A DNA stretch of 64,000 nucleotides, taken from Nitrospiraceae bacterium (GTDB lineage Bacteria > Nitrospirota > Nitrospiria > Nitrospirales > Nitrospiraceae). The translations under genes and the position numbers were made by a program. Within the stretch, counting starts at the first letter, position 1. Every line of letters starts with the position of its first letter. The stretch spans positions 492,811-556,810 of the forward strand of contig JBFWWG010000002.1 in NCBI GenBank assembly GCA_050246315.1, given 5' to 3'. Below are positions 6,164-20,015 of this stretch, in pieces. The notes under the pieces are model-generated. The model was not told where the DNA came from. It was given only the letters and a program-made list of their open reading frames with translations, and did no database searches.

Positions 6164-6364
6164 ATGACGGATGAGCAAGCGAGACAACGGATTGAAGCCG
6201 CCATCGCCCAATTCGGCCCCCGCGCCGCCATCGCGATTGAGCTCGTCATCAACGAAGTCCGGTCGGATCAGGGGCACGAGGCCGCCAATCAACTGATCGA
6301 TGAATTCGATCTCGAACTGCTATACAACATTACGCCCTACGAATCCGGATTTTCGAACGTCTAA
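6164..6364 (+). CDS. small hypothetical protein
   Basis: MTDEQARQRIEAAIAQFG... protein-like; start 6164 or 6113. Confidence 0.6.
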   Translation: MTDEQARQRIEAAIAQFGPRAAIAIELVINEVRSDQGHEAANQLIDEFDLELLYNITPYESGFSNV

Positions 6365-6398
6365 TCCATTCTCCTCACCTCCATCCAGGTCACGACGG

Positions 6399-7490
6399 TT
6401 GCCTCTCATCTGGTGCAGCATTTCCGGTCACGGGTTCGGCCACGCGGCCCAAGTCACCCCGGTTCTGAATGAGCTGGGCGTCAGGCTCCCGAATTTACGG
6501 GTCATCCTTCGCACGACGGTCCCGGCCTCTTTCTTCGAAGCCCGTTTGACCATCCCCTGGAACCTGAGCCCGGCTCGACAGGACATCGGCTGTGTTCAGC
6601 ATGGTCCGCTGGTGATCGACATCGACGCGACCTGGAAGGCCCATGCGGAATTGCACCAGGACTGGGAGCACTTGGTCGAACGGGAACGGCGGGAAATGGC
6701 TTCAGTCCAGCCGGATCTCGTGCTCTCCGATATTTCGCACTTGAGCATCGACGCCGCAGCCAGGTCCGGCCTTCGCTCGATTGCACTCTGCTCGCTCTCC
6801 TGGGATGCCATTCTCAAGGGGTATCTGTCCTCCGGCTCTCCTGCCGCAGCCGAACACCATGCAACCATCGCACACATCCGCCGCTGCTACGAAGCGGCCT
6901 CGACCCTGATCCGACCCACGCCCGGGATGGACCTGCCGGCGTTCAAGCAGATTGTCGATGTCGGGCCGATCATCGAAACGATCACGCCGGAATCAGCCAG
7001 ACTCCGGGACGCGATCGGGTCCAACCCGGACGAACGGCTCGTTCTGGTGGGGTTCGGTGGCATCAGCCTGACGTCCCTGCCCTACGAACAGATGGAGCGG
7101 ATGATCGGCTATCGGTTCCTCATCGACGGCCGGCCTCCTCATTCGTTTCAACGTCTTCACTCGGCGTTGGACCTCGGCATGAAATTCATGACGGTGCTGG
7201 CCTCTGTTGACCTCGTCATCACCAAGCCCGGCTACAGCACCATCGTCGAGGCGGTCGATAAGCGCAAGCCGGTGGTCTATGTCCGCCGGCACCACTTCGG
7301 AGATGAGGCCTCCCTGGTCGAATATCTCCACCGGTACGGTCGCGGTGCCGAGCTCAGCCTTGACGATTTTTCATCCGGAAGGTGGGAATCCGCCCTCAAC
7401 ACAGCCTGGCAGGCACCCCATCCGAGCGATCCGCCTCCGCCTTCCGGCGTGGCGCAAGCCGCAGCTCTGCTGGCCGACTCTCTCTCGTGA
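6399..7490 (+). CDS. GT-B fold glycosyltransferase-like protein
   Basis: N-terminal ISGHGFGHA motif and C-terminal DLVITKPGYSTIVEA nucleotide-sugar motif; probable TTG start 6399. Confidence 0.75.
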   Translation: MPLIWCSISGHGFGHAAQVTPVLNELGVRLPNLRVILRTTVPASFFEARLTIPWNLSPARQDIGCVQHGPLVIDIDATWKAHAELHQDWEHLVERERREMASVQPDLVLSDISHLSIDAAARSGLRSIALCSLSWDAILKGYLSSGSPAAAEHHATIAHIRRCYEAASTLIRPTPGMDLPAFKQIVDVGPIIETITPESARLRDAIGSNPDERLVLVGFGGISLTSLPYEQMERMIGYRFLIDGRPPHSFQRLHSALDLGMKFMTVLASVDLVITKPGYSTIVEAVDKRKPVVYVRRHHFGDEASLVEYLHRYGRGAELSLDDFSSGRWESALNTAWQAPHPSDPPPPSGVAQAAALLADSLS

Positions 7491-7509
7491 CCATCGGTCA
7501 TCCTTCCGC

Positions 7510-7538
7510 TTGACAAGCCCTTGGCCGGTCGATAAGGT
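7510..7538 (+). promoter_or_regulatory. sigma70-type promoter of the lasso operon
   Basis: TTGACA (7510-7515), 17-bp spacer, TAAGGT (7533-7538), 45 bp before the RRE gene. Confidence 0.55.
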
Positions 7539-7583
7539 GCCCCGAGCCGGCATTCCTCTTCACTCCCGTCAGTCGACGAGATC

Positions 7584-7871
7584 ATGCGCTATCGCATTCC
7601 CGAAGATGTGGTCTCCCGCGAAGTCGGCGGAGAGGCAATTCTGTTGAACCTCGCAACCGGTACCTACTTCGGGCTCGACGGGATCGGCACCGAAATCTGG
7701 ACGGTCCTCGCCCGCGAGGGCACCGCCGAAGCGGTGACCAGTTCCCTACTCGCCGACTATGACGTGGAGGAACCGCGCCTCCGTCGCGATATCGATCAGT
7801 TCATCCAACAGCTCGTGCACAAGGGCCTCCTGGCGGCCGAGCCGATCCACGTGGGCCGTGACGGCCCATAA
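7584..7871 (+). CDS. PqqD-family RiPP recognition element (lasso B1/E protein)
   Basis: VVSREVGGEAILLNLATGTYFGLDGIGTEIW...LLADYDVE...DIDQFIQQLVHKGLL is the canonical PqqD pattern. Confidence 0.92.
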   Translation: MRYRIPEDVVSREVGGEAILLNLATGTYFGLDGIGTEIWTVLAREGTAEAVTSSLLADYDVEEPRLRRDIDQFIQQLVHKGLLAAEPIHVGRDGP

Positions 7872-8008
7872 CAAGGACAGTGTGACATCCGTTGGATCTT
7901 GGCCGTCGGAAGGCCACACCCGCGTCATTCGTCAATCGTGAGATTGCCTGATCCAGACGGCGGTTGACGATCGACCTCCTTTCACGATGGGCACCTTGCC
8001 TCTTTGTC

Positions 8009-10006
8009 ATGAGCGGAATCATCGGAACTCTCAATCTTGATGGCGCGCCGGCGGACCGATCGTTGCTGGCCCGCATGGCGAACCGGCTGGCTCACCGGGG
8101 ACCGGACGGATCGGACACCTGGGTCAGCGGCCCGCTGGGCATGGGCCATCTCATGTTACACAGCACGCCCGAATCGCTTGCCGAAAGACAGCCGCTCTCC
8201 GACTCATCTCAGACTCTCTCTGTGACGCTCGACGGTCGGATCGACAACCGCAATGAACTGTGCAGGCTCTTGGCCGACCGGTCCAAATTCGATACTCCTC
8301 TGTCCGACGCCCAACTCCTCCTCCTGGCCTATGAGCGCTGGGGAACGGCCTGTCCGGAACGGATCATCGGCGACTTCGCCTTCGCCCTCTGGGACCGCCG
8401 TGAACGGCAGTTGTTCTTCGCGCGCGACGTCCTCGGAACCAAGCCGTTCTTCTATACTCGTCACCGACACCGCTTGCTGTGGGCGTCGGAACCACGGGCC
8501 TTACTCGAAGATCCTGACGTGAGGACGGCGCCGGATGAAGGCATGATCGGCGAATACCTTGCGGTTGCGATCACCAACAACCGGGATACGCTCTTCCAGG
8601 AGATCAAGCGTCTACCCCCCGCCCATTGCCTCACCGTTCAGACAGACCGGCCCGAGGAACCGATCCGCATCTGGCAATACTGGGCTCCCGATCCTCGCCG
8701 CCGGATCTGCTATCGGAGTGACGGGGATTATGCCGCACACTTTCTGGATCTGTTTAGAGAGGCGGTGCGCTGTTCGCTCAGAAGCCACCGGCCCGTCAGG
8801 GCCGAACTCAGCGGCGGGCTCGATTCCTCCTCGATCGTGGCGGTCGCCTGCTCGCTGATCCGAGACGGTTCCATCACGAGCCAAGGATTCGAAACCCTGT
8901 CCCTGACCTTTCCAAGCAAAGCCTGCGACGAAACCTCGTATATTCTGGACATGATGCACCAGTGGCGTCTGCGCGGAACGCTGGAAGTGGTGCCCGACTC
9001 CGACCCGCATGATTATCCCGCACTGGTCCGCGAAGACCTGGACCTGCCGGACTATCCGAACGGCATGATGTCGATGGGTCTCCTCGCCAAGGCTCGCGAT
9101 AAAGGGGCAGTCGTCGTTCTCAATGGGGCCGGCGGCGATGAATGGCTGGGAGGCAGCTACTACCATTACGCCGACCTTGTGCGTGCCGGCCGCCTGTTCA
9201 GCCTTATGCGACGCCTGTGGGACGACCGGCGGGCTCTCAGCGTCGCCTTTCCCCCTTGTTCGATCCTTCGTCTAGGCATCTGGCCGAACCTGCCTCGTTG
9301 GCTCCGGGTCTCGCTCCGCCGCATGATCGGGAGGCGGGGTCTCCCCCGATGGATTTTGCCGGACTTCGCCCGTCGAATCGACCTGCTCGATCGGCTCGGC
9401 ATTGAGCCCGGTCCACGCCGCGGCCGCTCCTTCGCCCAGGAGGATCTGTATCGTACCCTGTGGAGCGGGTGGCAGGCGCAAGGGAACGAGGCCGGTGATC
9501 GAGCGTTGGCGCGCTGCGGCATCGAACAACGGTCGCCATTCAACGACCGCCGGATCATCGAGTTCGCCTTTGCGATTCCGGAGGAGCAACGATGGCGTCA
9601 CGGCAAGCCTAAGTTTCTCTTGCGCCAAGCCATGAACGGGCTCTTGCCGGAATCGGTGAGGAACCGAAACACCAAGGCCGATTTCTCCCACATCTTTCTT
9701 CAGGCGCTGAGAAGTCAGGGCGGCGCACGCCTATTCGAGTCCTTGCAAACGGAGCAACTCGGTTGGATCAACGGCGAGGAGATCCGCCGCATGTATCGTC
9801 GCATGGAGAACGACTACCGAATCGGCAATCAGCGGTATGCCAGCTCAACCTGGCCGCTCTGGATGGTCTATGGCATCGAACTGTGGCTCCGTGCGTTGAC
9901 CGAGCCGGAAGGAGTGCAATTCCATGAGGGAAGAGGACGATCCTCCGAAGAGGCAGGGGACGGTCAGGAGAACTTACAAGCCGCCTACCTTGGTGGAGTA
10001 CGGTAA
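8009..10006 (+). CDS. lasso peptide cyclase (asparagine synthetase-like, C protein)
   Basis: Begins MSGIIG (Ser where AsnB has catalytic Cys), HRGPDG, GDFAF, PP-loop SGGLDSS, GxGGDE; lies between RRE and precursor. Confidence 0.88.
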   Translation: MSGIIGTLNLDGAPADRSLLARMANRLAHRGPDGSDTWVSGPLGMGHLMLHSTPESLAERQPLSDSSQTLSVTLDGRIDNRNELCRLLADRSKFDTPLSDAQLLLLAYERWGTACPERIIGDFAFALWDRRERQLFFARDVLGTKPFFYTRHRHRLLWASEPRALLEDPDVRTAPDEGMIGEYLAVAITNNRDTLFQEIKRLPPAHCLTVQTDRPEEPIRIWQYWAPDPRRRICYRSDGDYAAHFLDLFREAVRCSLRSHRPVRAELSGGLDSSSIVAVACSLIRDGSITSQGFETLSLTFPSKACDETSYILDMMHQWRLRGTLEVVPDSDPHDYPALVREDLDLPDYPNGMMSMGLLAKARDKGAVVVLNGAGGDEWLGGSYYHYADLVRAGRLFSLMRRLWDDRRALSVAFPPCSILRLGIWPNLPRWLRVSLRRMIGRRGLPRWILPDFARRIDLLDRLGIEPGPRRGRSFAQEDLYRTLWSGWQAQGNEAGDRALARCGIEQRSPFNDRRIIEFAFAIPEEQRWRHGKPKFLLRQAMNGLLPESVRNRNTKADFSHIFLQALRSQGGARLFESLQTEQLGWINGEEIRRMYRRMENDYRIGNQRYASSTWPLWMVYGIELWLRALTEPEGVQFHEGRGRSSEEAGDGQENLQAAYLGGVR

Positions 10007-10103
10007 TATCGCGAAGCTCACCCACACCGCATTCGGCAGCGGAGCGGACGGAGGGATGATGGGGAACATGATGGGAACCAGCGGCATGATGATGTGTTTA
10101 TGA
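9924..10103 (+). CDS. lasso peptide precursor (59 aa)
   Basis: Own translation MREEDDPPKRQGTVRRTYKPPTLVEYGNIAKLTH-TAFGSGADGGMMGNMMGTSGMMMCL; YxxPxLxxxGxxxxxT leader motif; Asp at core position 8; GGAAGGAG RBS upstream; below the ORF-track length cutoff. Confidence 0.9.
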   Translation: MREEDDPPKRQGTVRRTYKPPTLVEYGNIAKLTHTAFGSGADGGMMGNMMGTSGMMMCL

Positions 10104-10133
10104 GCCCGAGGTCCCAGCATCGGAGAGCCGAAC

Positions 10134-11303
10134 TTGTCCACGATTATCGATGAACATCGCGAGTATCTCAGCGATAGACCACGCCTGGCTGCGTTCCGGC
10201 AGGCGCTGGAACAACTCGTCACGCCGGACTCGGTCGTCCTTGACTTGGGTTGCGGCACCGGGATTCTCGGATTGCTGGCCTGCCGCGCCGGCGCCAAGAG
10301 GGTCTATGCCGTCGATGAGGGCGGCGTAATCGAGGTCGCGCGAGGCCTGTGTTCAGCGAACGGCTTTGCCGACCGGATGAGGTTCATCAAAGGATTGTCT
10401 ACCCAGATAGAGTTGCCGGAGCAGGTTGATCTGATCGTCGCGGATCAGATCGGCCACTTCGGCTTCGAGGCCGGCATCTGCTTATACTTTCGAGATGCCA
10501 AGGCGCGCTTCTTGAAGCCGACCGGACAGACGATCCCGAAGCGAATCGCCCTCCATGTCGCTCCACTCGAACACCAAGCGCTCCGAGACCAGGTGGATTT
10601 CTGGCGGCAGGCTCCGCGACAGGGCCTCATCGAATTCGATTTGAGTCCGGTCCATCTGCCGGCCCTGAATAGCGGATACCCGGTGAAACTCCAGCCCGAC
10701 CACCTCCTTGGTCCTTCGGCTATGGCCGCCTCGTTCGATCCAGCCGAGGCGCCGGAACCGATGCGGTTTCATACGGACCTGACGGTGGGACGGGCCGGAG
10801 TATTTCATGGCATCGGCGGCTGGTTCGTGGCGGAGCTTGCCCCCGGCGTGACGATGTCCAACTCGCCGCTTTTCGCGCAGCGGGTCAATCGCCGTAACGC
10901 CTTCTTCCCCGTCGCTCAGCCGGTTTCAGTGGAGAAGGATGATCGGATCGACCTCACGATGACGATTCTGCCCTCGCAGACGGTGGTGTCCTGGAAGGTC
11001 CAGGTTTGGCGGACGACGACACCCTCCCAGCCTGGCCGGCGGACCCTTCTGACCGAGTCCACCCATTCGACCATGCAGGGCATGTTATTGAGCCGGGAAG
11101 ACCTTCACCGCACAAGGCCGGACTTTGTGCCACGCCTGACTCCCTGGGGAGAGGCGCGGCAGACCGTGCTCTCCTACTGCGACGGCAACCTTCCGCTCGC
11201 CATGATTGAACAGGAAGTCCTGCGGAGTCACCCGGATCTCTTTCCAAATCTCACGGCGGCCTCCATCTTCGTCGCCGAGGTCGTGACCCGATACAGCCGG
11301 TGA
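10134..11303 (+). CDS. class I SAM-dependent methyltransferase, PRMT-like architecture
   Basis: HREYLSDRPRLAAFRQAL, VLDLGCGTGILG, VYAVDE, LPEQVDLIV, FLKPTGQTIP, FHGIGGWF mirror protein arginine methyltransferase motifs. Confidence 0.85.
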   Translation: MSTIIDEHREYLSDRPRLAAFRQALEQLVTPDSVVLDLGCGTGILGLLACRAGAKRVYAVDEGGVIEVARGLCSANGFADRMRFIKGLSTQIELPEQVDLIVADQIGHFGFEAGICLYFRDAKARFLKPTGQTIPKRIALHVAPLEHQALRDQVDFWRQAPRQGLIEFDLSPVHLPALNSGYPVKLQPDHLLGPSAMAASFDPAEAPEPMRFHTDLTVGRAGVFHGIGGWFVAELAPGVTMSNSPLFAQRVNRRNAFFPVAQPVSVEKDDRIDLTMTILPSQTVVSWKVQVWRTTTPSQPGRRTLLTESTHSTMQGMLLSREDLHRTRPDFVPRLTPWGEARQTVLSYCDGNLPLAMIEQEVLRSHPDLFPNLTAASIFVAEVVTRYSR

Positions 11304-12310
11304 GGGCCGTGGGTCGTCATCCGGACATCCCCTATCGCTATTCGTTCGCCGACTTGATCCTCTCTAGCAATACGACTTTGCCCGACCTCCCTCCGTTGTC
11401 CTCCAACTCCTTCCAGCCAGCCGATCAGGAGGCTCCGCTCGAAGTCACCTTCTCAAATCGGTCGCCGCTGGCTGCCCAGCCTGACCGCTGGCTGGTCCGG
11501 ATCGGGGGTAGGCGGCGGCCATGGATGTGTTTGGGTCTGACCAAAAATGGTTACCTGCTTCGGTTCCTCGGTATCGCAGATTTCCTGCTCGATTCCTCGG
11601 GTCGATGGATCCAAGGGAGATCGGATGGCCGGACAACGAAGCGGCGAGTCGCCCATCTTTTGCTGGACCATGTGCTGCCTCTTGCTCTTTCGCTCAGACA
11701 GAAGACCGTGCTCCACGCTTCGGCGGTTGTCACTCGGGATGGTTGTTGTGTGTTCACCGGCCCTTCCGGCTCCGGCAAATCGACGCTCGCTGCAAGTTTT
11801 CAGGCTGATGGGGCTGAGCTGCTCAGCGATGACTGCGTGATGCTCACCAAACGAAACGGATCAGTCTGGGTGACGCCCACCTATCGGAGTCTAAGGCTCT
11901 GGTCCGATTCGCTTCGACATCTCGTCCCGCCTCAACCCGCTGAGCCGGTCCGGTTCGGCTCGTCCATCAAACATTCGGTCTTGGTCCCAGCCGGACGAAC
12001 TCGCCTCGCTTATCCGGTGCGCAGGATCTACCATCTTTCGGCTGGAGTGATCCGCCCAAACGGACAACGTCGCTCGCCCATGACATCCCGCGCGACGGTG
12101 ACGACACTGAGTCTCCGCGAGGGGTTGGTACACCTGCTTGCCGCTCTGCGCCGAGTGAACATGACAGACCCTATCGGCTTGATTCGAGAATTGGAGGCGC
12201 TGAGTCCCATCGTGGAAGCAGTCCCGGTCAAACGGTTGACCGTGCCGCATCGTTATGACCGCCTAGACGAAGTTCGCGAGGTCGTTCGGCAGGACTTGCA
12301 AGGGACCTGA
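11300..12310 (+). CDS. HPr kinase-like RiPP kinase
   Basis: LHASAV...FTGPSGSGKSTLA...LLSDD motifs; GTGA overlap with the methyltransferase. Confidence 0.82.
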   Translation: MRAVGRHPDIPYRYSFADLILSSNTTLPDLPPLSSNSFQPADQEAPLEVTFSNRSPLAAQPDRWLVRIGGRRRPWMCLGLTKNGYLLRFLGIADFLLDSSGRWIQGRSDGRTTKRRVAHLLLDHVLPLALSLRQKTVLHASAVVTRDGCCVFTGPSGSGKSTLAASFQADGAELLSDDCVMLTKRNGSVWVTPTYRSLRLWSDSLRHLVPPQPAEPVRFGSSIKHSVLVPAGRTRLAYPVRRIYHLSAGVIRPNGQRRSPMTSRATVTTLSLREGLVHLLAALRRVNMTDPIGLIRELEALSPIVEAVPVKRLTVPHRYDRLDEVREVVRQDLQGT

Positions 12311-12316
12311 CGACGC

Positions 12317-13477
12317 ATGAGGATGGACCACCTCCATCCGCGGCTCGCCGCCGCGCTCGGCATTGTTCGGTGCACCGCCCAAGCCATCCCTCTCGTCACC
12401 ACCGATTGGCCGAAGTTGATCGAACAGGCCGAGCGATATCGCCTGATTCCCCTGCTCCATGACCACCTGCTCCAAACCGGATTGTTCTCGACCCTGCCTG
12501 ACTCCGCTCACCAGGCATTACGGAGCCGGCTCGCCGAGATCGCTGCTCGGCAACTGTCGCTGACGTACGGCCTGACCGCCATCCTCAAACGATGCAAGGC
12601 GGCAGCCATTCCCTGTGCGCCACTCCGCGGGCCGGCGCTGACTTCAATGCTTGCCCCCTCCCTGTCCACCAGGGTGATGGAGGATATCGATCTGCTCATC
12701 CCCAAACGACTCCTTGGCACTATGGTCGTCCTGTTGGCAGATTTGGGGTATCGCCAGATCGAACAGCGCCCGGGCTTTGCACAGCGATTTTCGTATGCGA
12801 CATCGTTCGTCGCATTGAGGCCGGTTCCGCTCTGCGTGGACGTCCATTGGAGTTTGGCCTACCCGCCTCATCACGATCGCATCGACATGGAGGGAGTCTG
12901 GCAACGAGCCGAACAGAGGGAGTTTGATCGCGCACCCGGTTGGTCGATCAGCCTGCCGGACCTTCTGATCCATTTATGCGCCCATTGGCAGCATAAAGGC
13001 GGAAGGGGACCGATCTTGTGGCTCTTCGAACTGGATCAACTCATCCGCCGCAACCGGAATCTCGACTGGCACCTTGTTCGTGAACTGGCCCGCGACAGCG
13101 GACAGTGCCCGGCTGTGTGCAAGACTCTTATGGAACTGCGAGACCTCTATGAGACGCCGTTACCGGAATGGCTGCTCGATCGAGGAACTCAGTCCGGTTT
13201 GCCGAGCGCTTCTCTCGCAGAAATTGGTCCGTTCGAAGAATGGGCGCAGTTGGCCTCGTTACCGGATCTGTTCACCAAACTGCGCTACGCGGGCTCACTC
13301 GTCTGGCCCTCGCCAGAGTATATGCGCTGGCGTTACGGCGTCTCCAGTTCGGCGGCGCTGCTCTGGGCCTACCTACGCAGATCTGTTGAGCTAGGCTGGG
13401 CCGTGGCCCCCTGGCGACTGACTCGCCTTAGATCCTACATTTCGCGGTTCTCGTCTCGGTTTACCTTATTCAAATGA
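12317..13477 (+). CDS. nucleotidyltransferase family protein (NTP_transf_5-like)
   Basis: LRGPAL...RVMEDIDLLI, VDVHW, LIHLCAH motifs. Confidence 0.82.
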   Translation: MRMDHLHPRLAAALGIVRCTAQAIPLVTTDWPKLIEQAERYRLIPLLHDHLLQTGLFSTLPDSAHQALRSRLAEIAARQLSLTYGLTAILKRCKAAAIPCAPLRGPALTSMLAPSLSTRVMEDIDLLIPKRLLGTMVVLLADLGYRQIEQRPGFAQRFSYATSFVALRPVPLCVDVHWSLAYPPHHDRIDMEGVWQRAEQREFDRAPGWSISLPDLLIHLCAHWQHKGGRGPILWLFELDQLIRRNRNLDWHLVRELARDSGQCPAVCKTLMELRDLYETPLPEWLLDRGTQSGLPSASLAEIGPFEEWAQLASLPDLFTKLRYAGSLVWPSPEYMRWRYGVSSSAALLWAYLRRSVELGWAVAPWRLTRLRSYISRFSSRFTLFK

Positions 13478-13536
13478 TCGTATTCCTGCGTGCTTCTGTG
13501 CCATGGTACGATGCCTGCCAATTGGAAGATCCAGCA

Positions 13537-14037
13537 ATGGAACGCCCCTTCGACAAAGACCTCGAGTACATGCGACTGGCGATCGATGAGGCCACACTCG
13601 CCGCCGCACGCGGCGAAGTCCCGATCGCCGCCATCCTGGTCGCAGAGGACCGGATCGTCGCCCAGGGCCACAATTTCCGAGAACTCTGGCAGGACCCGAC
13701 GGCCCATGCCGAGATGATTGTCATCCGTGAGGCAGCCGCCAAGCAAGGCACCTGGCGGCTGATCGACACCACGCTCTATGTGACGCTCGAACCCTGTTCG
13801 ATGTGCGCGGGCGCGATTGTCCTGGCGCGGATTCCCCGCCTGGTGTTCGCCGCACCGGATCCCAAGGCGGGCGCCTGCGGCTCGCTGTTCAACATCACGC
13901 AGGACCGGCGTTTGAATCACAGGGTCGAGATCGTAAGCGGGTTGCTCGAACGAGAGAGCCAGGAATTGCTTCAGAGGTTTTTCCGAAGTCTGCGCGAAAA
14001 GGACGAGCGGCGGATGAGTTTGGACCCCGGCCTCTGA
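13537..14037 (+). CDS. tadA: tRNA adenosine(34) deaminase
   Basis: GEVPIAA, DPTAHAE, LYVTLEPCSMCAGA, DPKAGACGS. Confidence 0.95.
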   Translation: MERPFDKDLEYMRLAIDEATLAAARGEVPIAAILVAEDRIVAQGHNFRELWQDPTAHAEMIVIREAAAKQGTWRLIDTTLYVTLEPCSMCAGAIVLARIPRLVFAAPDPKAGACGSLFNITQDRRLNHRVEIVSGLLERESQELLQRFFRSLREKDERRMSLDPGL

Positions 14038-14053: not shown

Positions 14054-14845
14054 TCAACTCCCTTCTCCCAACCAGCAACGGACTAGGCGAAGGTCTGGTT
14101 GATAGCGCCGCACCTGCCATTCCACTCCTTCCGCCGCCACGGCACCAAGGTAGGTTGTCGAGAGTGGAACAAAGCGAACCAGCCAAGACCGACCTTTGAT
14201 CTCCCCTTGAAGCCACACCGTCGCGGAATGGCCACCCGGATGACCAATCACCTCGCAGTGTGACAGTCCTCTGGCCAGCCCCACCCCGGTGGCTTTGAGC
14301 ACCGCCTCCTTCGCCGTCCAATACCGGATGAACTCTGCCTTGTAGCGCGGGCGGGACAACAAGGCAAAGTGCGTCTGTTCTGCCGGAGAAAAATATCGCT
14401 CCACGATGGCCTGCGGCCGAACCGGTCGAGTCAGCGCCTCGACATCCACACCGACCGGCCGGCCACTCGCCACGGCAATCATCGTCATGTCGGCCGAATG
14501 GGCCAAGTTGAATTCCAGACGCGGTGACTCGGCCACCTTCACCATCTGAGGCTTACCATTGGCGTGAGCCTGAAACCGGAGTCGCTCGGGTTGTATAGCG
14601 AGGTACCGGCTGAGGACCAGACGCAAGAATCCGTGCGCCAGGACAAAGTGCATCCGATGAGTCGGATCAGCCAGGCGCGCCGCCCGTTTCCGTTCCTCCG
14701 GTGATAAGAGAGCCGTGAACCGCTGAAGATCGCGACGGAACGTCCTGACATCAGCCGTCCACAGGTGCACTGAGCGGGCATCCAGCGCCGGTCTCTCAAC
14801 CGGCTTGGCGGGTTTCCGTTTTTGTTCGGTTGGCATGGCCGTCAC
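14054..14845 (-). CDS. Sfp-type 4'-phosphopantetheinyl transferase
   Basis: GKP, FNLAHS, VGVDVE, WTAKEAVLKATGVGL. Confidence 0.92.
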   Translation of the reverse strand: MTAMPTEQKRKPAKPVERPALDARSVHLWTADVRTFRRDLQRFTALLSPEERKRAARLADPTHRMHFVLAHGFLRLVLSRYLAIQPERLRFQAHANGKPQMVKVAESPRLEFNLAHSADMTMIAVASGRPVGVDVEALTRPVRPQAIVERYFSPAEQTHFALLSRPRYKAEFIRYWTAKEAVLKATGVGLARGLSHCEVIGHPGGHSATVWLQGEIKGRSWLVRFVPLSTTYLGAVAAEGVEWQVRRYQPDLRLVRCWLGEGS

Positions 14846-16167
14846 GGGTTTACCGGTCGTCCGCGTCGACCATTTGAAAATTGTCGTCGCGCCAGGTTAT
14901 CTTCACGACTTCCCACGGCCGCAACGGAGAGGTGACGGAGTGGCCGAACGTGCCGGTCTCGAAAACCGGTGTCTGGGTAACTGGACCGAGGGTTCAAATC
15001 CCTCCCTCTCCGCCATTTTTCAATAGCTTGTGACGCTGTTTCAGCGGGGGTGATACCTAGAATCGCCTCAGGTGTCACCGGAAATGTAACCTTTTTCTCC
15101 TGAATGTACGCCCCTAGCTTCGCGGCAGCCTGCCTCAGGTCTTCCTCACTGGTGATGTTGTATCGGTCAAATACGGAGCGCGTCTTGTGGCCGCTGATCT
15201 TCATGGCCACGGTCTCAGGAACGCCCGCACGGACAAGATTTCGCACTCCGGTGCGCCGTAGGTCATGGAAGGTCCTATTCTCGACGCCTACGCGCTGACA
15301 GGCCGCTTGCCAGCCATGTACGAGGTTACTGAATGGCTTCCCGTTCCGGTGACAGACATAGGGGCAATGCGGATAGTCTCGGTCTCGCAGTTCCTTGGCC
15401 TTCTGGATCACGCGGAGGAAATCGCCCGTCATGTAGATCACGCGGGGCTGATTGGTCTTGGTTTGCTTGGCCGCCAGTCGGATGCAGCCTTCGGTCTCGC
15501 CTAATTCCACCTGCTCCCAGCGCAACCCCTTCTCACTGATGATTTCTCGCATCCGCATCCCGGTATAGTAGCCAATGGTCATGGCGACCTTGAGGTAATC
15601 CGGCGCGGCGCCCCGAACTGATAAAAACTCGTCATGCTCCAGGAAGCCTTCCCGCACATTGTTCTCCGCCAGCCGAGGGAAATGCGGAATCTGTCCTACC
15701 TTGGGAGGCGTTTGCCGCTGTCCCAGAATCATCATACGCTTGAGGGCATCAAGGTCTCGATTGACTGAGGCAGGCGCAGCCCCTTCCCCTAGCCGCTTGT
15801 CCACAAACTGCTGTAGACGTTGGGTGGTGATTGCGCTTACCCGCATTCCTCCGAAAACGGGTTTAAGTCGCTCGATGTTGTACTCCCGTCTGTCCCATGT
15901 CTTCAGCCCTTGAATTCGATAGTCTCGCTTCAGGTCTTCAACAAGGTCCTCAAACTTAGTCCGCTGAATCAGCGGGCCTACCCGCTGTCCGTCTAGAACC
16001 TTGCCTTCAGCCCGCTTCAAAACCGCCTGTGCCGCTCGCCTGTCATACCTCTCGGTAGACTGATAGATAGGTTTCCCATTGTCGAAGTATTTCATCCACC
16101 AGGGGCCAACCTCGACGCGCGCACCAGTGGCCGGGTCCTTCTTCTTGCGGCGATAGAGCGTCCCCAT
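14842..16167 (-). CDS. tyrosine recombinase/integrase
   Basis: TGMRMREI, TKT, FHDLRR, SGHKT, FDRY catalytic set; ORF extends antisense across the tRNA. Confidence 0.95.
   Translation of the reverse strand: MGTLYRRKKKDPATGARVEVGPWWMKYFDNGKPIYQSTERYDRRAAQAVLKRAEGKVLDGQRVGPLIQRTKFEDLVEDLKRDYRIQGLKTWDRREYNIERLKPVFGGMRVSAITTQRLQQFVDKRLGEGAAPASVNRDLDALKRMMILGQRQTPPKVGQIPHFPRLAENNVREGFLEHDEFLSVRGAAPDYLKVAMTIGYYTGMRMREIISEKGLRWEQVELGETEGCIRLAAKQTKTNQPRVIYMTGDFLRVIQKAKELRDRDYPHCPYVCHRNGKPFSNLVHGWQAACQRVGVENRTFHDLRRTGVRNLVRAGVPETVAMKISGHKTRSVFDRYNITSEEDLRQAAAKLGAYIQEKKVTFPVTPEAILGITPAETASQAIEKWRRGRDLNPRSSYPDTGFRDRHVRPLRHLSVAAVGSREDNLARRQFSNGRRGRPVNP
14926..15015 (+). tRNA. tRNA-Ser(CGA)
   Basis: GGAGAGG...CCTCTCCGCCA acceptor stem with encoded CCA, anticodon arm CCGGT-CTCGAAA-ACCGG, long variable arm, GGTTCAAATCC T-arm. 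Confidence 0.95.
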
Positions 16168-17021: not shown

Positions 17022-18482
17022 TCAATAACTTGCAGTTACGCCGCCTGTGTCGGATGTCCCATGTGTGGCGCTTTCCCCAGGGTATGAAAGCGGAACATAG
17101 CGGCTCACCAGTTCGTCGATCAGCTTCTTCTTCAGGTCGTACCCTCGCACAGTCGTTTTTCCGTCACGCCACTTGGCGGGGCGGAGCCCCAGCGGATGAA
17201 GCCGTGAGGCGAGCGCCCGTGGCGAGAGGGATTCCCATCCCAGCCGGTCCTTCACCTTCTCGATGAGGTCGGGGGTCGAAATGCTGACATGGGGGCACTC
17301 CCCGAGCGTGTCCCGCAGGACTTCCAGGATGCCGATCAAGGGCTCATCCCCGGAAAGAGCCGCCCGATCCTTGCCCATCCGCGCCGCCAGGTCGATCAGG
17401 CGATCCGTCAGCGAGGAGCCGCCTTCGGCATCGGCTACGGAGGTGATGGCCACGAGCGGTTCCCAGAGATTCACGGCGCGGTCATCGTCCAAGTTCGCCA
17501 ACCCGGCGAAGTCGCCTTTCTCGTAGCACCCCTCAATCGTCGCTGCGCGATCGAGCGCGAAGGCCGCGCACACGTCACGGGCAGCTTGGGCTAACCGCGA
17601 GAGATGGCGAGGAGAAAATCGGTCCACGCGCACGGAGGGCGGTTTTCGCTGGAGGAACAAGATCAGCGCCCGATCTTCGAGCGTCGATTCAAGCGCGGAG
17701 ATCGAGGCAATCACCCGAGGCACATAGGTCTCAAATTGCTCTTTGACCTGATTCCCGCCCACTTTCTTGTAGCGAGCGACCACGGCCCCACGGTGAAATC
17801 CGACATTCAGTACGCTGGTCATTGCGCTCCACCGTTCCCGGTCATGGGTCATGCCTTCGAGTTCGTCAAAAATTTGGACCCCGCCATCTTCTCTCGGTTC
17901 TCGGAAAATCTGGGCTTCCGTTGGGGAGGCCGTCGGGGGGTGTGCGTTGAATGCCAACAGGCTCACCACATCCAAGAGACGGCTTTTGCCGCATCGTTTT
18001 TCGGGAGAACGAAGCACCAAATACGGGAAGTACTCGAAGGCTTGATAGAGGTAGGTGCCGACAATCCAAACCGCCACCAGGAGCCCGGCATCTGGAGGCA
18101 GGATCACAAACCGGTTGACAAGCGATTCGAGATGGGCGATCAGCTCCGCTCCGTTCGGACGTTCCCCCTTGAGAAAGCGTTTGATACCGTCTCGCGACAG
18201 TGGCCCCGATCCGAGGCCATAGTCGATCGCTCCAAACGCTTCCGCCGGCAGAATGGTCCGATCCGACAGGACCACATGCGCGGCACCCTTCAGTCGAACA
18301 CCCAGACTCAACTTGCCCTCGCGAAAATCCTGTGGAAGCCGCGGGGGTGGTGTCGGTTCGGTCCCGTCCAGCAGGTCTTTGTATTGCGAGGCCTGATCGT
18401 GATCAGTATCGGCCACGCCGTTCAAGGCGGCCTTCGATAGCTCTTTAAGCCGCAGTGCGTCGGCGTTCATGTTGTTTGGCAT
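17022..18482 (-). CDS. DUF3631-like replication-associated protein
   Basis: WIVGTY...FPYLVLRSPEKRCGKSRLL P-loop variant, DE motif, WEPLVAI, C-terminal winged-helix-like LASRLHPLGLRP...RGY. Confidence 0.75.
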   Translation of the reverse strand: MPNNMNADALRLKELSKAALNGVADTDHDQASQYKDLLDGTEPTPPPRLPQDFREGKLSLGVRLKGAAHVVLSDRTILPAEAFGAIDYGLGSGPLSRDGIKRFLKGERPNGAELIAHLESLVNRFVILPPDAGLLVAVWIVGTYLYQAFEYFPYLVLRSPEKRCGKSRLLDVVSLLAFNAHPPTASPTEAQIFREPREDGGVQIFDELEGMTHDRERWSAMTSVLNVGFHRGAVVARYKKVGGNQVKEQFETYVPRVIASISALESTLEDRALILFLQRKPPSVRVDRFSPRHLSRLAQAARDVCAAFALDRAATIEGCYEKGDFAGLANLDDDRAVNLWEPLVAITSVADAEGGSSLTDRLIDLAARMGKDRAALSGDEPLIGILEVLRDTLGECPHVSISTPDLIEKVKDRLGWESLSPRALASRLHPLGLRPAKWRDGKTTVRGYDLKKKLIDELVSRYVPLSYPGESATHGTSDTGGVTASY

Positions 18483-19002
18483 CGCGTGCCTTTCCCTGAT
18501 CGTAATCTCGAAACCGCAGCGTATCCGCCACGTCCTCTAGAATCGTCGCCCGCTCCAGATCGCGACGAGCCTGTGCCACGGCATCCATTGCGCAGTCGAA
18601 GTCCTCATCTGTCCACGTTGAGGTGTCGAGTCCAGAGGCTGCGCGCAGCACCGCTTCAGCCCGTTGCCGCAGATCAAGCGCGGTCTGTTCAAATTCAAAC
18701 GCGGTCCGCACCGGATCAAACCGGGCAGTTGTCGGTTGGTTCGGCGGGCGGGAGCCGCGAGGAAGTGCGGCATCATGGAAGAGGTCGGAAACCCGGATGT
18801 TGAGGGCTGCACAGATGGCGGACAGCTCACACCCCGCGAAGCAGCGGAGCAGTAACCCGCGTTCCCCTTGAGCGACTGACAACGATGGGTTGCGATCCGC
18901 ATGCGCCGGGCACCGCGCTTGCCAACCGCGGGAAGTTCGGCGCGTGGGTCCTCCGAGTCGTGAAAGGAAGTCGTCGATGGTCACGGCTGCCCTCCCGATC
19001 AC
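18445..19002 (-). CDS. primase-type zinc-finger protein (CHC2-like)
   Basis: WQARCPAHADRNPSLSV...LLRCFAGC. Confidence 0.78.
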   Translation of the reverse strand: MIGRAAVTIDDFLSRLGGPTRRTSRGWQARCPAHADRNPSLSVAQGERGLLLRCFAGCELSAICAALNIRVSDLFHDAALPRGSRPPNQPTTARFDPVRTAFEFEQTALDLRQRAEAVLRAASGLDTSTWTDEDFDCAMDAVAQARRDLERATILEDVADTLRFRDYDQGKARDAKQHERRRTAA

Positions 19003-19166
19003 TTCTTGTTGTTGGCGGTTTCAACAAACGCACTAAGATCCTCGGGCCTGACAAGGACTCGACGGCCCAACCTGACAACGGGGAGCCTACCATCCCGAAT
19101 CCAACGACGAATCGTACTCTCACCTACCCGCAACTCCGATTTGACTGCGTGAATGTCTTTGAGCAT
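18999..19166 (-). CDS. AlpA/excisionase-like HTH protein (55 aa)
   Basis: Own translation MLKDIHAVKSELRVGESTIRRWIRDGRLPVVRLGRRVLVRPEDLSAFVETANNKK; GGAGG RBS; stop overlaps GTG of the primase-like gene; missed by ORF track. Confidence 0.85.
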   Translation of the reverse strand: MLKDIHAVKSELRVGESTIRRWIRDGRLPVVRLGRRVLVRPEDLSAFVETANNKK

Positions 19167-19307
19167 GAAACACCTCCGTTGAGTTGTAGTGATCGTTCAC
19201 AAGGTAGATGATAGTTCCTTTCAGAGAAGGAACAATGGACAGATAAGAGAAATGAAAGTGTCTAAGATTTGGGCAAGGCGGCGGGGGGATCTGCTAACGG
19301 GATCAGT

Positions 19308-20015
19308 CTATGTGGAGCGCCTGTCCTCGAACAGGAGAGCAAACTCGCCCTTAAGAATCTCAGGTCCCTTGTCCTTCAGGTGCTGGAGCGCCCTCTTGGC
19401 CTTGTTGGCAGCGCCACGGTCCTCCGTGTCTACTGACGCAGCCTGCAAGGCCATCACAGCATGTCGCAAGTGTTCTAAGGCGATTCTATGTGTCCGTTTC
19501 CTGGCTCGATACAGCCTCTTGTCACTCGCGCCTAGGAACGCCCGCCGTACTTGGACAGGCGTGCTCAGGCCTTGGAGGTCCGCCGCAGCGATTCGACGAC
19601 CCAGCAGCTTTGTAAGGGCATCGGCCAACTCCCTGGTTCGAGCGATCTGGTTGCGAATACGCCTGGCGTTGCGCCAGATTCCAGGAAGTGTCTCCTTAAG
19701 ATGTTTCTGTTCCGCTAACATCGCTTGATCTCTAGCATCTGCCCGGCGCGCCCTCATATCTGGCAAGCGGGGATTTCGGGCCTGCTGGAGTGCCCACTTC
19801 AGAGCGGCGGTTTGCCCATCTCGGCCCCGGCGTGCAGCGTATTCGCGGAGAAATTCCTCTACCCAGACCCGATACCGCTTGTACGTGTCAGGATCATGCT
19901 GCTTGAGAAGTGTTTCCAGTCCTTCAGTGAGGGTCTGGAAAAATTGTAGTTGTTCGCTTTTCCTCAGGATTCTACGGCGATCGTTGTCCGGCATCAGCCC
20001 CTCCCGTTGGAGCAT
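19308..20015 (-). CDS. hypothetical basic helical protein of the element
   Basis: 235-aa ORF co-oriented with the element backbone. Confidence 0.6.
   Translation of the reverse strand: MLQREGLMPDNDRRRILRKSEQLQFFQTLTEGLETLLKQHDPDTYKRYRVWVEEFLREYAARRGRDGQTAALKWALQQARNPRLPDMRARRADARDQAMLAEQKHLKETLPGIWRNARRIRNQIARTRELADALTKLLGRRIAAADLQGLSTPVQVRRAFLGASDKRLYRARKRTHRIALEHLRHAVMALQAASVDTEDRGAANKAKRALQHLKDKGPEILKGEFALLFEDRRST

Follow-up and report, generated by a model that had tools for sequence, protein, structure and literature searches.

The 64,000-nucleotide stretch of DNA analysed here as a whole, hereafter the window, belongs to contig JBFWWG010000002.1 of a Nitrospiraceae bacterium (assembly GCA_050246315.1) and contains a cluster of six genes that lie on one strand and are closely spaced or overlapping (Table 1). 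One of them, an open reading frame (ORF) at 9924-10103 (+) with an ATG start, is likely to encode the precursor of a tailored lasso peptide. Its 59-residue translation, MREEDDPPKRQGTVRRTYKPPTLVEYGNIAKLTHTAFGSGADGGMMGNMMGTSGMMMCL, divides into a predicted leader ending in ...YKPPTLVEYGNIAKLTH and a predicted core, TAFGSGADGGMMGNMMGTSGMMMCL. Lasso peptides are a well-known class of peptides that are made on ribosomes and modified after translation (RiPPs); the family to which this precursor belongs is undescribed as far as literature searches reach. Below, the precursor gene is called A, and the other genes B1, C, MT (methyltransferase), K (kinase) and N, as in Table 1.

Table 1. Features of the lasso-type cluster, in window coordinates.
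Feature	Position	Strand	Basis and remarks
B1: PqqD-family leader-binding chaperone (RiPP recognition element, RRE), 95 aa	7584..7871	+	PF05402 E 6e-17; NF033536 lasso_PqqD_Bac E 5e-15, under cut-off
C: Asn-synthase-like lasso macrolactam cyclase	8009..10006	+	NF033535 E 1e-138; PF00733 and GATase domains
Shine-Dalgarno-like AGGAG	9910-9914	+	9 nt 5' of the precursor ATG; read from the sequence
A: leader, 34 codons	9924..10025	+	Tyr(-17), Pro(-14), Leu(-12), Gly(-8), Thr(-2), His(-1)
A: core, 25 codons and stop	10026..10103	+	predicted ring Thr1-Asp8, Asp codon 10047-10049
A: core Cys	10095-10097	+	within the core; 7 Met in the tail
A: C-terminal Leu	10098-10100	+	within the core
MT: methyltransferase, type I PRMT fold with ~70-aa C-terminal extension	10134..11303	+	PF06325, PF13649, PF22528 PRMT_C
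K: HprK-related P-loop kinase	11300..12310	+	TIGR04352 HprK_rel_A E 1e-10, PF07475 E 1.5e-3, both below cut-offs
N: NTP_transf_5 nucleotidyltransferase-fold protein (PsmN/BsfN type of lasso clusters)	12317..13477	+	PF14907 E 2e-42

The precursor gene and its family

The ORF and the 59-residue peptide quoted in a preliminary description of this DNA were both confirmed from the sequence. Its claim that the peptide is a lasso-type precursor is supported by the leader model NF033521 (lasso_leader_L3; NCBIfam 'lasso RiPP family leader peptide-containing protein'), which the precursor passes with 22.3 bits against a cut-off of 19, and by the position of the gene between a lasso-type cyclase and tailoring genes; several relatives carry the same name at NCBI. 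When the core begins at residue 35, Tyr18, Pro21, Leu23 and Thr33 fall at positions -17, -14, -12 and -2, and this Tyr/Pro/Leu and Thr(-2) register is the lasso core definition used in PMC10368454. Whether judged by the rule for Thr(-2) or by the Tyr(-17)/Pro(-14)/Leu(-12) register, Thr falls at core position 1, as had been proposed, and Asp8, the sole acidic residue of the core, is likewise upheld as the predicted ring acceptor, the ring Asp being invariant in 40 of 40 aligned precursors. The count of 7 Met in the 25-residue core, next to one Cys, is correct, and the tail was rightly said to hold no aromatic or Arg plug: after Asp8 there is no F, W, Y, R, K or H.

The gene is single-copy in its own genome and occupies the same position in 3/3 other genomes of the genus. 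Compared with one of these (G001), 13 codons are changed synonymously and 11 non-synonymously, the latter comprising 7 in the N-terminal leader, 1 at core Ala2 and 3 at tail residues 52-54. Contigs from the RNA libraries of four studies overlap parts of the cluster, and two of them (X2 and X8 studies) reach the precursor: a 5.6-kb contig over 7500-11984 contains it whole, and one over 9738-10063 contains most of it. A promoter and terminator scan of 7400-13700 gave nothing above shuffled expectation and no promoter-like site on the + strand.

It could be objected that the precursor ORF is a chance frame at the 3' end of the cyclase, as the first 83 nt of the leader share DNA, in a different frame, with the 3' end of the cyclase ORF (7964-10006), and the length is merely 59 codons. 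Such an origin is refuted by the match to the curated leader model, by 486 homologues, with selection acting on the peptide, and by the constant position of the gene in the cluster across four phylum-level groups. These homologues were obtained with a profile of 40 precursors run against a collection of 5.8 billion proteins, in which 486 proteins matched at E<=1e-3; the 120 of these matches that were listed, together with earlier hits, give 113 unique cores. In this set of listed matches and earlier hits, a Cys-Leu (CL) end is shared by 112 of the 113 unique cores, the remaining one having ML; Met accounts for 415 of the 1479 tail residues (28%), and Gly occupies core position 1 in 102 cores, Thr in 6, Ser in 2 and each of Phe, Ala and Ile in 1. 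The homologues keep the Met/Cys tail, so that the lack of Met/Cys conservation on which the preliminary description said its proposal would fail is not what the family displays.

A search probed with the methyltransferase yielded 34 loci from Nitrospiraceae/Nitrospira, Terriglobales/Acidobacteriaceae, Vicinamibacterales and metagenome-assembled genomes (MAGs) of Binataceae, which have the gene order B1-(B2)-C-A-MT-K-N in common, B2 being the leader peptidase discussed below. In relatives too, B1 neighbours the cyclase, the kinase is kept after MT or the precursor, and the NTP_transf_5 gene is kept after the kinase. Precursors were recovered from 32 of the 34 loci, the other two being contig fragments, and all 35 of them end in Cys-Leu. 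Pooled with genus and family relatives, this MT-seeded set gives 42 unique cores, of which 40 end in CL; Met contributes 166 of their 576 tail residues, and the ring Asp is the eighth core residue in 19, the ninth in 22 and the seventh in 1. Within the alignment of 40 precursors, Y18, P21, Y26, G27, K31, T33 and the ring Asp are invariant in 40/40, while Met11, the Cys and the C-terminal Leu are at least 90% conserved; for the leader columns Y18, P21, L23 and T33, conservation in the same 40 sequences is complete or reaches at least 90%. The predicted precursor family is large and phylogenetically broad. Its spread within the phylum is patchy, with matches to the precursor profile in 14 of 401 genomes and in 4 of the 35 genomes of genus g10, and metagenomes carry further intact precursor variants (P0003 to P0005). 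Literature searches by title or listing found no description of a Met-rich Cys-Leu lasso family.

Thr at position 1 is a minority, derived-looking state of a mostly Gly1 family and a rare variant of this genus. It is not unique, and other predicted precursors of the phylum begin with Thr too. The replacement of Gly by Thr, Ser, Phe or Ala at ring position 1 in the genus bears on the strictness of the cyclase and of B2.

Some loci of the family depart from the common arrangement. Tandem, diverged precursors occur in one cluster, two in G003 (L012/L038) and three in a Vicinamibacterales MAG (L068), all ending in Cys-Leu. In a Nitrospiraceae sub-branch (L013 in G021, L014 in G025, L017 in G020), Glu or Lys is the first residue of the predicted cores, the tails are rich in Lys, His and Gly, and 2/3 have no Cys-Leu end despite the presence of the methyltransferase. 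In the Binataceae MAGs L061, L063 and L064, the precursor gene is positioned after the methyltransferase gene and not before it. The clusters of L061 and L063, the two examined, contain a 671-aa ABC exporter, and L061 also has B2 and a second PqqD gene.

Proposed ring closure, threading and leader removal

The cyclase is the best of the four Asn-synthase-like loci in the genome. Its ORF opens at TTG 7964; the homologues of G021 and G025 begin MSGI, matching ATG 8009, which is most likely the true start. The MSGI N-terminus presents Ser instead of a Cys nucleophile: the N-terminal Cys, which we take to be the nucleophile of true AsnB, is replaced by Ser in the cyclase. In the proposed maturation, the PqqD protein B1 would bind the leader via Tyr(-17)xxPro(-14)xLeu(-12), and a Transglut_core3 peptidase (B2), guided by Thr(-2), would cut after His(-1), the enzyme being either the remote, sole B2 of the genome or another protease. 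The cyclase would then activate the side chain of Asp8 and join it to the free amine of Thr1, giving an 8-residue ring and a 17-residue tail.

The features that could hold such a tail in its ring vary across the family. Several other members with an 8-residue ring likewise have no aromatic or basic residue, the Nitrospira relatives with a 9-residue ring mostly retain a tail Phe (1/22 has Arg instead), and a Binataceae core (T1) has Lys and Arg. The product could also be a RiPP other than the predicted lasso, with the leader cut elsewhere or with an unthreaded, branched-cyclic structure whose tail is unlockable in an 8-residue ring. We regard this as unlikely. The tail devoid of F, W, Y, R, K and H would fit it, as would the variability of position 1 among close relatives (T, S, F, A) and the K or E found at this position in more distant MT-linked relatives, residues that are unusual there for lasso cyclases. 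Set against this are the constant spacing of Tyr(-17), Pro(-14), Leu(-12), Thr(-2) and Asp in the family and the core itself, which aligns residue for residue with Gly1-Asp8 cores of Terriglobales relatives (e.g., GGQGTGAD...) and so supports the Thr1-Asp8 ring. Moreover, a bulky residue 1 is known from lasso peptides, e.g., Trp1 in fuscanodin and cellulonodin-1 (PMC12214591).

Transglut_core3 (B2) is absent from the cluster and from the whole window, the best tblastn match having an E of 0.097 and lying outside the cluster. In G021, G025, G038 and most Nitrospira loci, B2 sits between B1 and C; in the present cluster, 137 nt separate B1 and the cyclase ATG at 8009, at the place that B2 takes in relatives. 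The genome has exactly one PF13471 gene, on contig C14 in another locus; a single such gene, at a great distance from the cluster (~500 kb in G001), is likewise present in all three other genomes of the genus. The genus has lost the cluster's own leader peptidase B2, and removal of the leader would have to occur in trans from the remote locus or by another protease. As a natural case of a lasso cluster devoid of its own leader peptidase, the genus bears on the strictness of B2 and of the cyclase.

The absence of B2 could also be taken as a sign that the cluster is a decaying remnant in this genus, the precursor being no longer matured after the loss. In keeping with this, B2 is missing from the window and, in all 4 genomes of the genus, from the vicinity of the cluster; most relatives retain it between B1 and C. 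Decay is nevertheless very unlikely. In G000 (the present genome), G001 and G002, each of the six genes has its full length, with 68-98% protein identity, and in G003 the contig stops within the gene for the kinase. The ring and the residues by which the leader is recognized show no change, against the 13 synonymous codon changes that separate the gene from that of G001, G003 holds its two diverged tandem precursor genes, and the metagenome variants P0003 to P0005 are intact. In addition, RNA-library contigs overlap the cluster, and a B2 gene exists elsewhere in each of these genomes.

The remote B2 locus (G000 contig C14, ~62000-71000; L071 10-8990) lies outside the window, adjoins purF and is RiPP-like. 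It contains B2, a 622-aa ABC exporter, a 339-aa protein without family, a RimK-type ATP-grasp protein and a second NTP_transf_5 protein. The version of this locus in G004 (L073) adds PqqD, an HprK-like kinase and a fatty-acid-hydroxylase-family protein, and has no Asn-synthase-like cyclase. The remote B2-ABC pair was considered as a relocated half of the cluster, and this was rejected. The likeness of both proteins to their lasso-cluster counterparts is generic: the ABC protein matches an exporter of a Binataceae cluster in the generic ATPase domain alone (35% over 275 aa), and no other B2 in the comparison is as divergent as the remote one, which more likely belongs to the other locus.

Probable tailoring enzymes and the Cys-Leu end

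Among described systems, the one nearest to this cluster is bsf (A, B1, B2, C, D, K, N) from Bradymonas sediminis FA350 (PMC10368454), with which the present cluster shares the split B1/B2 lasso type, the cyclase, the HprK-type kinase and the N gene, while BsfA shares the YxxPxL leader motif and a predicted ring from residue 1 to Asp8. The bsf system has Ile(-2), Gly1, a B2 inside the cluster and a D transporter, with no methyltransferase described in the available part of PMC10368454, whereas the cluster studied here has Thr(-2), Thr1, neither B2 nor D, a PRMT-fold methyltransferase and a Met-rich Cys-Leu tail. BsfK phosphorylates ring Ser3 and not a C-terminal Ser, and the mature bsf product was not obtained (PMC10368454). 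Kinase and nucleotidyltransferase-fold tailoring proteins are also shared with paeninodin and pseudomycoidin (PadeK, PsmK/PsmN; PMC9266682); PsmK phosphorylates, and PsmN adds a hexose to the phosphate (PMC9266682). The kinases of these two systems act on a C-terminal Ser (PMC9266682), whereas the studied peptide ends in Leu. Because the peptide and 112 of its 113 relatives among the matches listed end in Cys-Leu, the kinase target must differ from the paeninodin type. The ring is the likelier kinase site, since the C-terminus is Leu and the ring contains Ser or Thr in all 42 cores (in 41 of the 42 at one of positions 3 to 5, and as Ser5 in the studied peptide). The HprK-like kinase would most likely phosphorylate the conserved ring Ser5, and the NTP_transf_5 protein may extend the Ser5 phosphate, as PsmN does.

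The methyltransferase has the fold of the type I protein arginine methyltransferases (PRMTs). Its AlphaFold model (pLDDT 87.8) finds PRMT2, PRMT6 and HMT1 as the best matches in the PDB by Foldseek (E ~1e-29, 24-25% identity), the beta-barrel domain is recognized by Pfam (PF22528 PRMT_C, E 5e-7), and the C-terminal ~70 residues are predicted to form three helices. With the eukaryotic type I PRMTs (PRMT2, PRMT6, HMT1, PRMT1) it shares the Rossmann and beta-barrel domains, at TM ~0.65-0.69 over ~330 columns and 24-25% identity. Unlike them, it has no conserved substrate Arg, altered double-E and THW regions, and an extra C-terminal domain of ~70 aa. In the motif DQIGHFGFEAG, an invariant Asp occupies the first of what we take to be the double-E positions, the second varying between E, N and D, and two Arg ('RR') lie in the region that presumably corresponds to the THW loop. 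Arginine methylation by MT is unlikely, as the 42 cores have no conserved Arg in common and the double-E and THW positions are altered. As a working hypothesis, MT would methylate the end of the tail, most likely at the thiol of the penultimate Cys or at the C-terminal carboxylate, the two Arg holding the carboxylate.

SAM-dependent methyltransferases are also found in lasso clusters of the lassomycin type (LasF, StspM) and as PIMT homologues in those of cellulonodin-2 and lihuanodin (PMC9266682, PMC13352647). In lassomycin, the C-terminal carboxylate is O-methylated (PMC9266682, PMC13352647); the same site is among the two suggested for the studied enzyme. Mitomycin 7-O-methyltransferase served as the basis for a model of StspM, and the PIMT homologues are the enzymes that form aspartimide (PMC9266682). 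The studied MT differs from both in its type I PRMT fold with a beta-barrel and an additional C-terminal domain, neither known type being described as PRMT-like in the available parts of PMC9266682 and PMC13352647. Literature searches by title found no PRMT-fold enzyme in a lasso cluster, and a PRMT-fold methyltransferase without an arginine substrate in a RiPP cluster would be a new type of lasso tailoring enzyme.

The association between the methyltransferase and the Cys-Leu end was tabulated over the 14 genomes found with the precursor profile, with MT not used as query and 1.5-kb flanks considered. This descriptive table counts CL with an adjacent MT in 6 genomes, MT without CL in 2 (G021 and G025), neither in 6 and CL without MT in 0. 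MT follows the precursor in all 6 CL cases found in this way. In the 6 genomes with neither, the kinase or other genes follow the precursor, and some cores have one or two Met. That the CL end is seen beside MT only, in genomes not chosen via MT, points to a modification of the tail; G021 and G025 have MT but no CL end, and CL is therefore not the sole determinant of MT. The Met-rich Cys-Leu tail is probably the conserved working end of the family.

Several points weigh against the proposal of a tailored lasso peptide. The product is deduced from genes alone, its tail has no aromatic or basic plug, and the cluster is devoid of B2, a defining gene, the remote B2 being the most divergent and belonging to another locus. 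The cyclase reaches 463.8 bits against the NF033535 cut-off of 525 and lies just above the cut-off of TIGR01536 asparagine synthase, and the family matches of the kinase are weak and below cut-offs. The genomes counted in the CL/MT table are related and not independent, and the MT-linked precursors of two of them (G021, G025) end otherwise than in CL. The RNA-library contigs are no proof of transcription; they give no level or strand, and their gaps are uninterpretable. The C-terminal domain of MT was also tried as a PqqD-like RRE and rejected, hhalign against the B1 alignment giving a probability of 0.1% and Pfam at E<=10 giving noise. A tailored lasso peptide nonetheless seems likely to us on the whole.

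Further observations concern MT itself. Stand-alone homologues occur in 5/5 genomes of g35 (G037, G040, G043, G046, G049), in which no such lasso precursor is present; they show 38-41% identity in open frames of 319-369 aa and match MT residues 4 to ~290-313, short of its C-terminal part. His108 of the MT motif was considered as a marker of the CL end and rejected: the residue is Cys in G021 and Glu in G025, which do not end in CL, but Arg in G020 and Gln in G035, which do. A complex prediction of MT with SAM and the precursor scored 0.02, which gives no verdict and is evidence neither way.

Possible function of the tail, and the flanking genes

The near-invariant, Met-rich Cys-Leu tail raises a question of chemistry that involves thioether, thiol and methylation. 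The preliminary description had suggested a soft-metal role, in which the Met/Cys tail would serve as a Cu(I)/Ag(I) ligand or as a redox sink. Such a copper-binding lasso is compatible with the lasso reading and concerns the role of the product. We consider it rather unlikely, although the tail's composition makes a soft-metal site of thioethers and thiolate a reasonable conjecture. The high Met content of the tails in the 113-core set, their MM, MxM and MGM patterns and the near-invariant Cys all agree with it, as does the Met/His/Gly-rich tail of the MT-linked relative G025. The tail would also resemble the Cu(I) sites of proteins for copper resistance, which are rich in Met and His. RiPP metallophores also exist, e.g., the bufferins (PMC11626156). 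Methanobactins and bufferins are likewise ribosomal peptides, and their sulfur-rich metal sites offer a functional analogy alone; they differ in their MbnBC/MNIO enzymes and in their ligands.

The genomic context argues against a metal role. Among 42 proteins flanking 6 non-Nitrospira loci, exporters are present and no copper-homeostasis, TonB-receptor or metallochaperone gene was found, nor is there a copper-related gene in the conserved neighbourhood of the Nitrospira loci (PagL-hyp252-glycosyltransferase...tadA). The Nitrospira cluster has no exporter, and the patchy spread across the phylum and genus g10 fits an accessory metabolite better than a core metal system. If MT capped the Cys thiol, the strongest ligand would be lost. 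A soft-metal site is no more likely than an ordinary lasso peptide that acts in antagonism or signalling and has a modified hydrophobic tail. The fullest form of the copper proposal combines a widespread lasso family, carried by nitrite oxidisers and by Acidobacteriota/Binatia of soil, a thioether-rich Cu(I)-binding tail, and a PRMT-fold enzyme re-tooled from arginine to Cys-Leu by S-methylation or as a methyl ester, and is quite unlikely. Were it true, the Cu(I) tail would make the peptide the first lasso-type metallophore and add a new RiPP tailoring chemistry, and copper binding would be of relevance to metal supply in nitrifying bacteria.

A glycosyltransferase-like gene at 6300-7490 was considered as a further cluster member and rejected as a housekeeping neighbour: it is found in 19/22 other genomes of the family (including the unpublished G009), many of them without a precursor, and in G021 the gene and the cluster are on separate contigs. 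On the 3' side, the cluster is followed by tadA and then by a tRNA-Ser with an integrase. The 3' part of the tyrosine integrase ORF (14842-16167, - strand) overlaps tRNA-Ser(CGA) at 14926-15015 (+), and phage- or plasmid-flavoured ORFs lie beyond the integrase at 17022-20015. This region, which begins just downstream of tadA and a PPTase gene, probably represents an integrated element.

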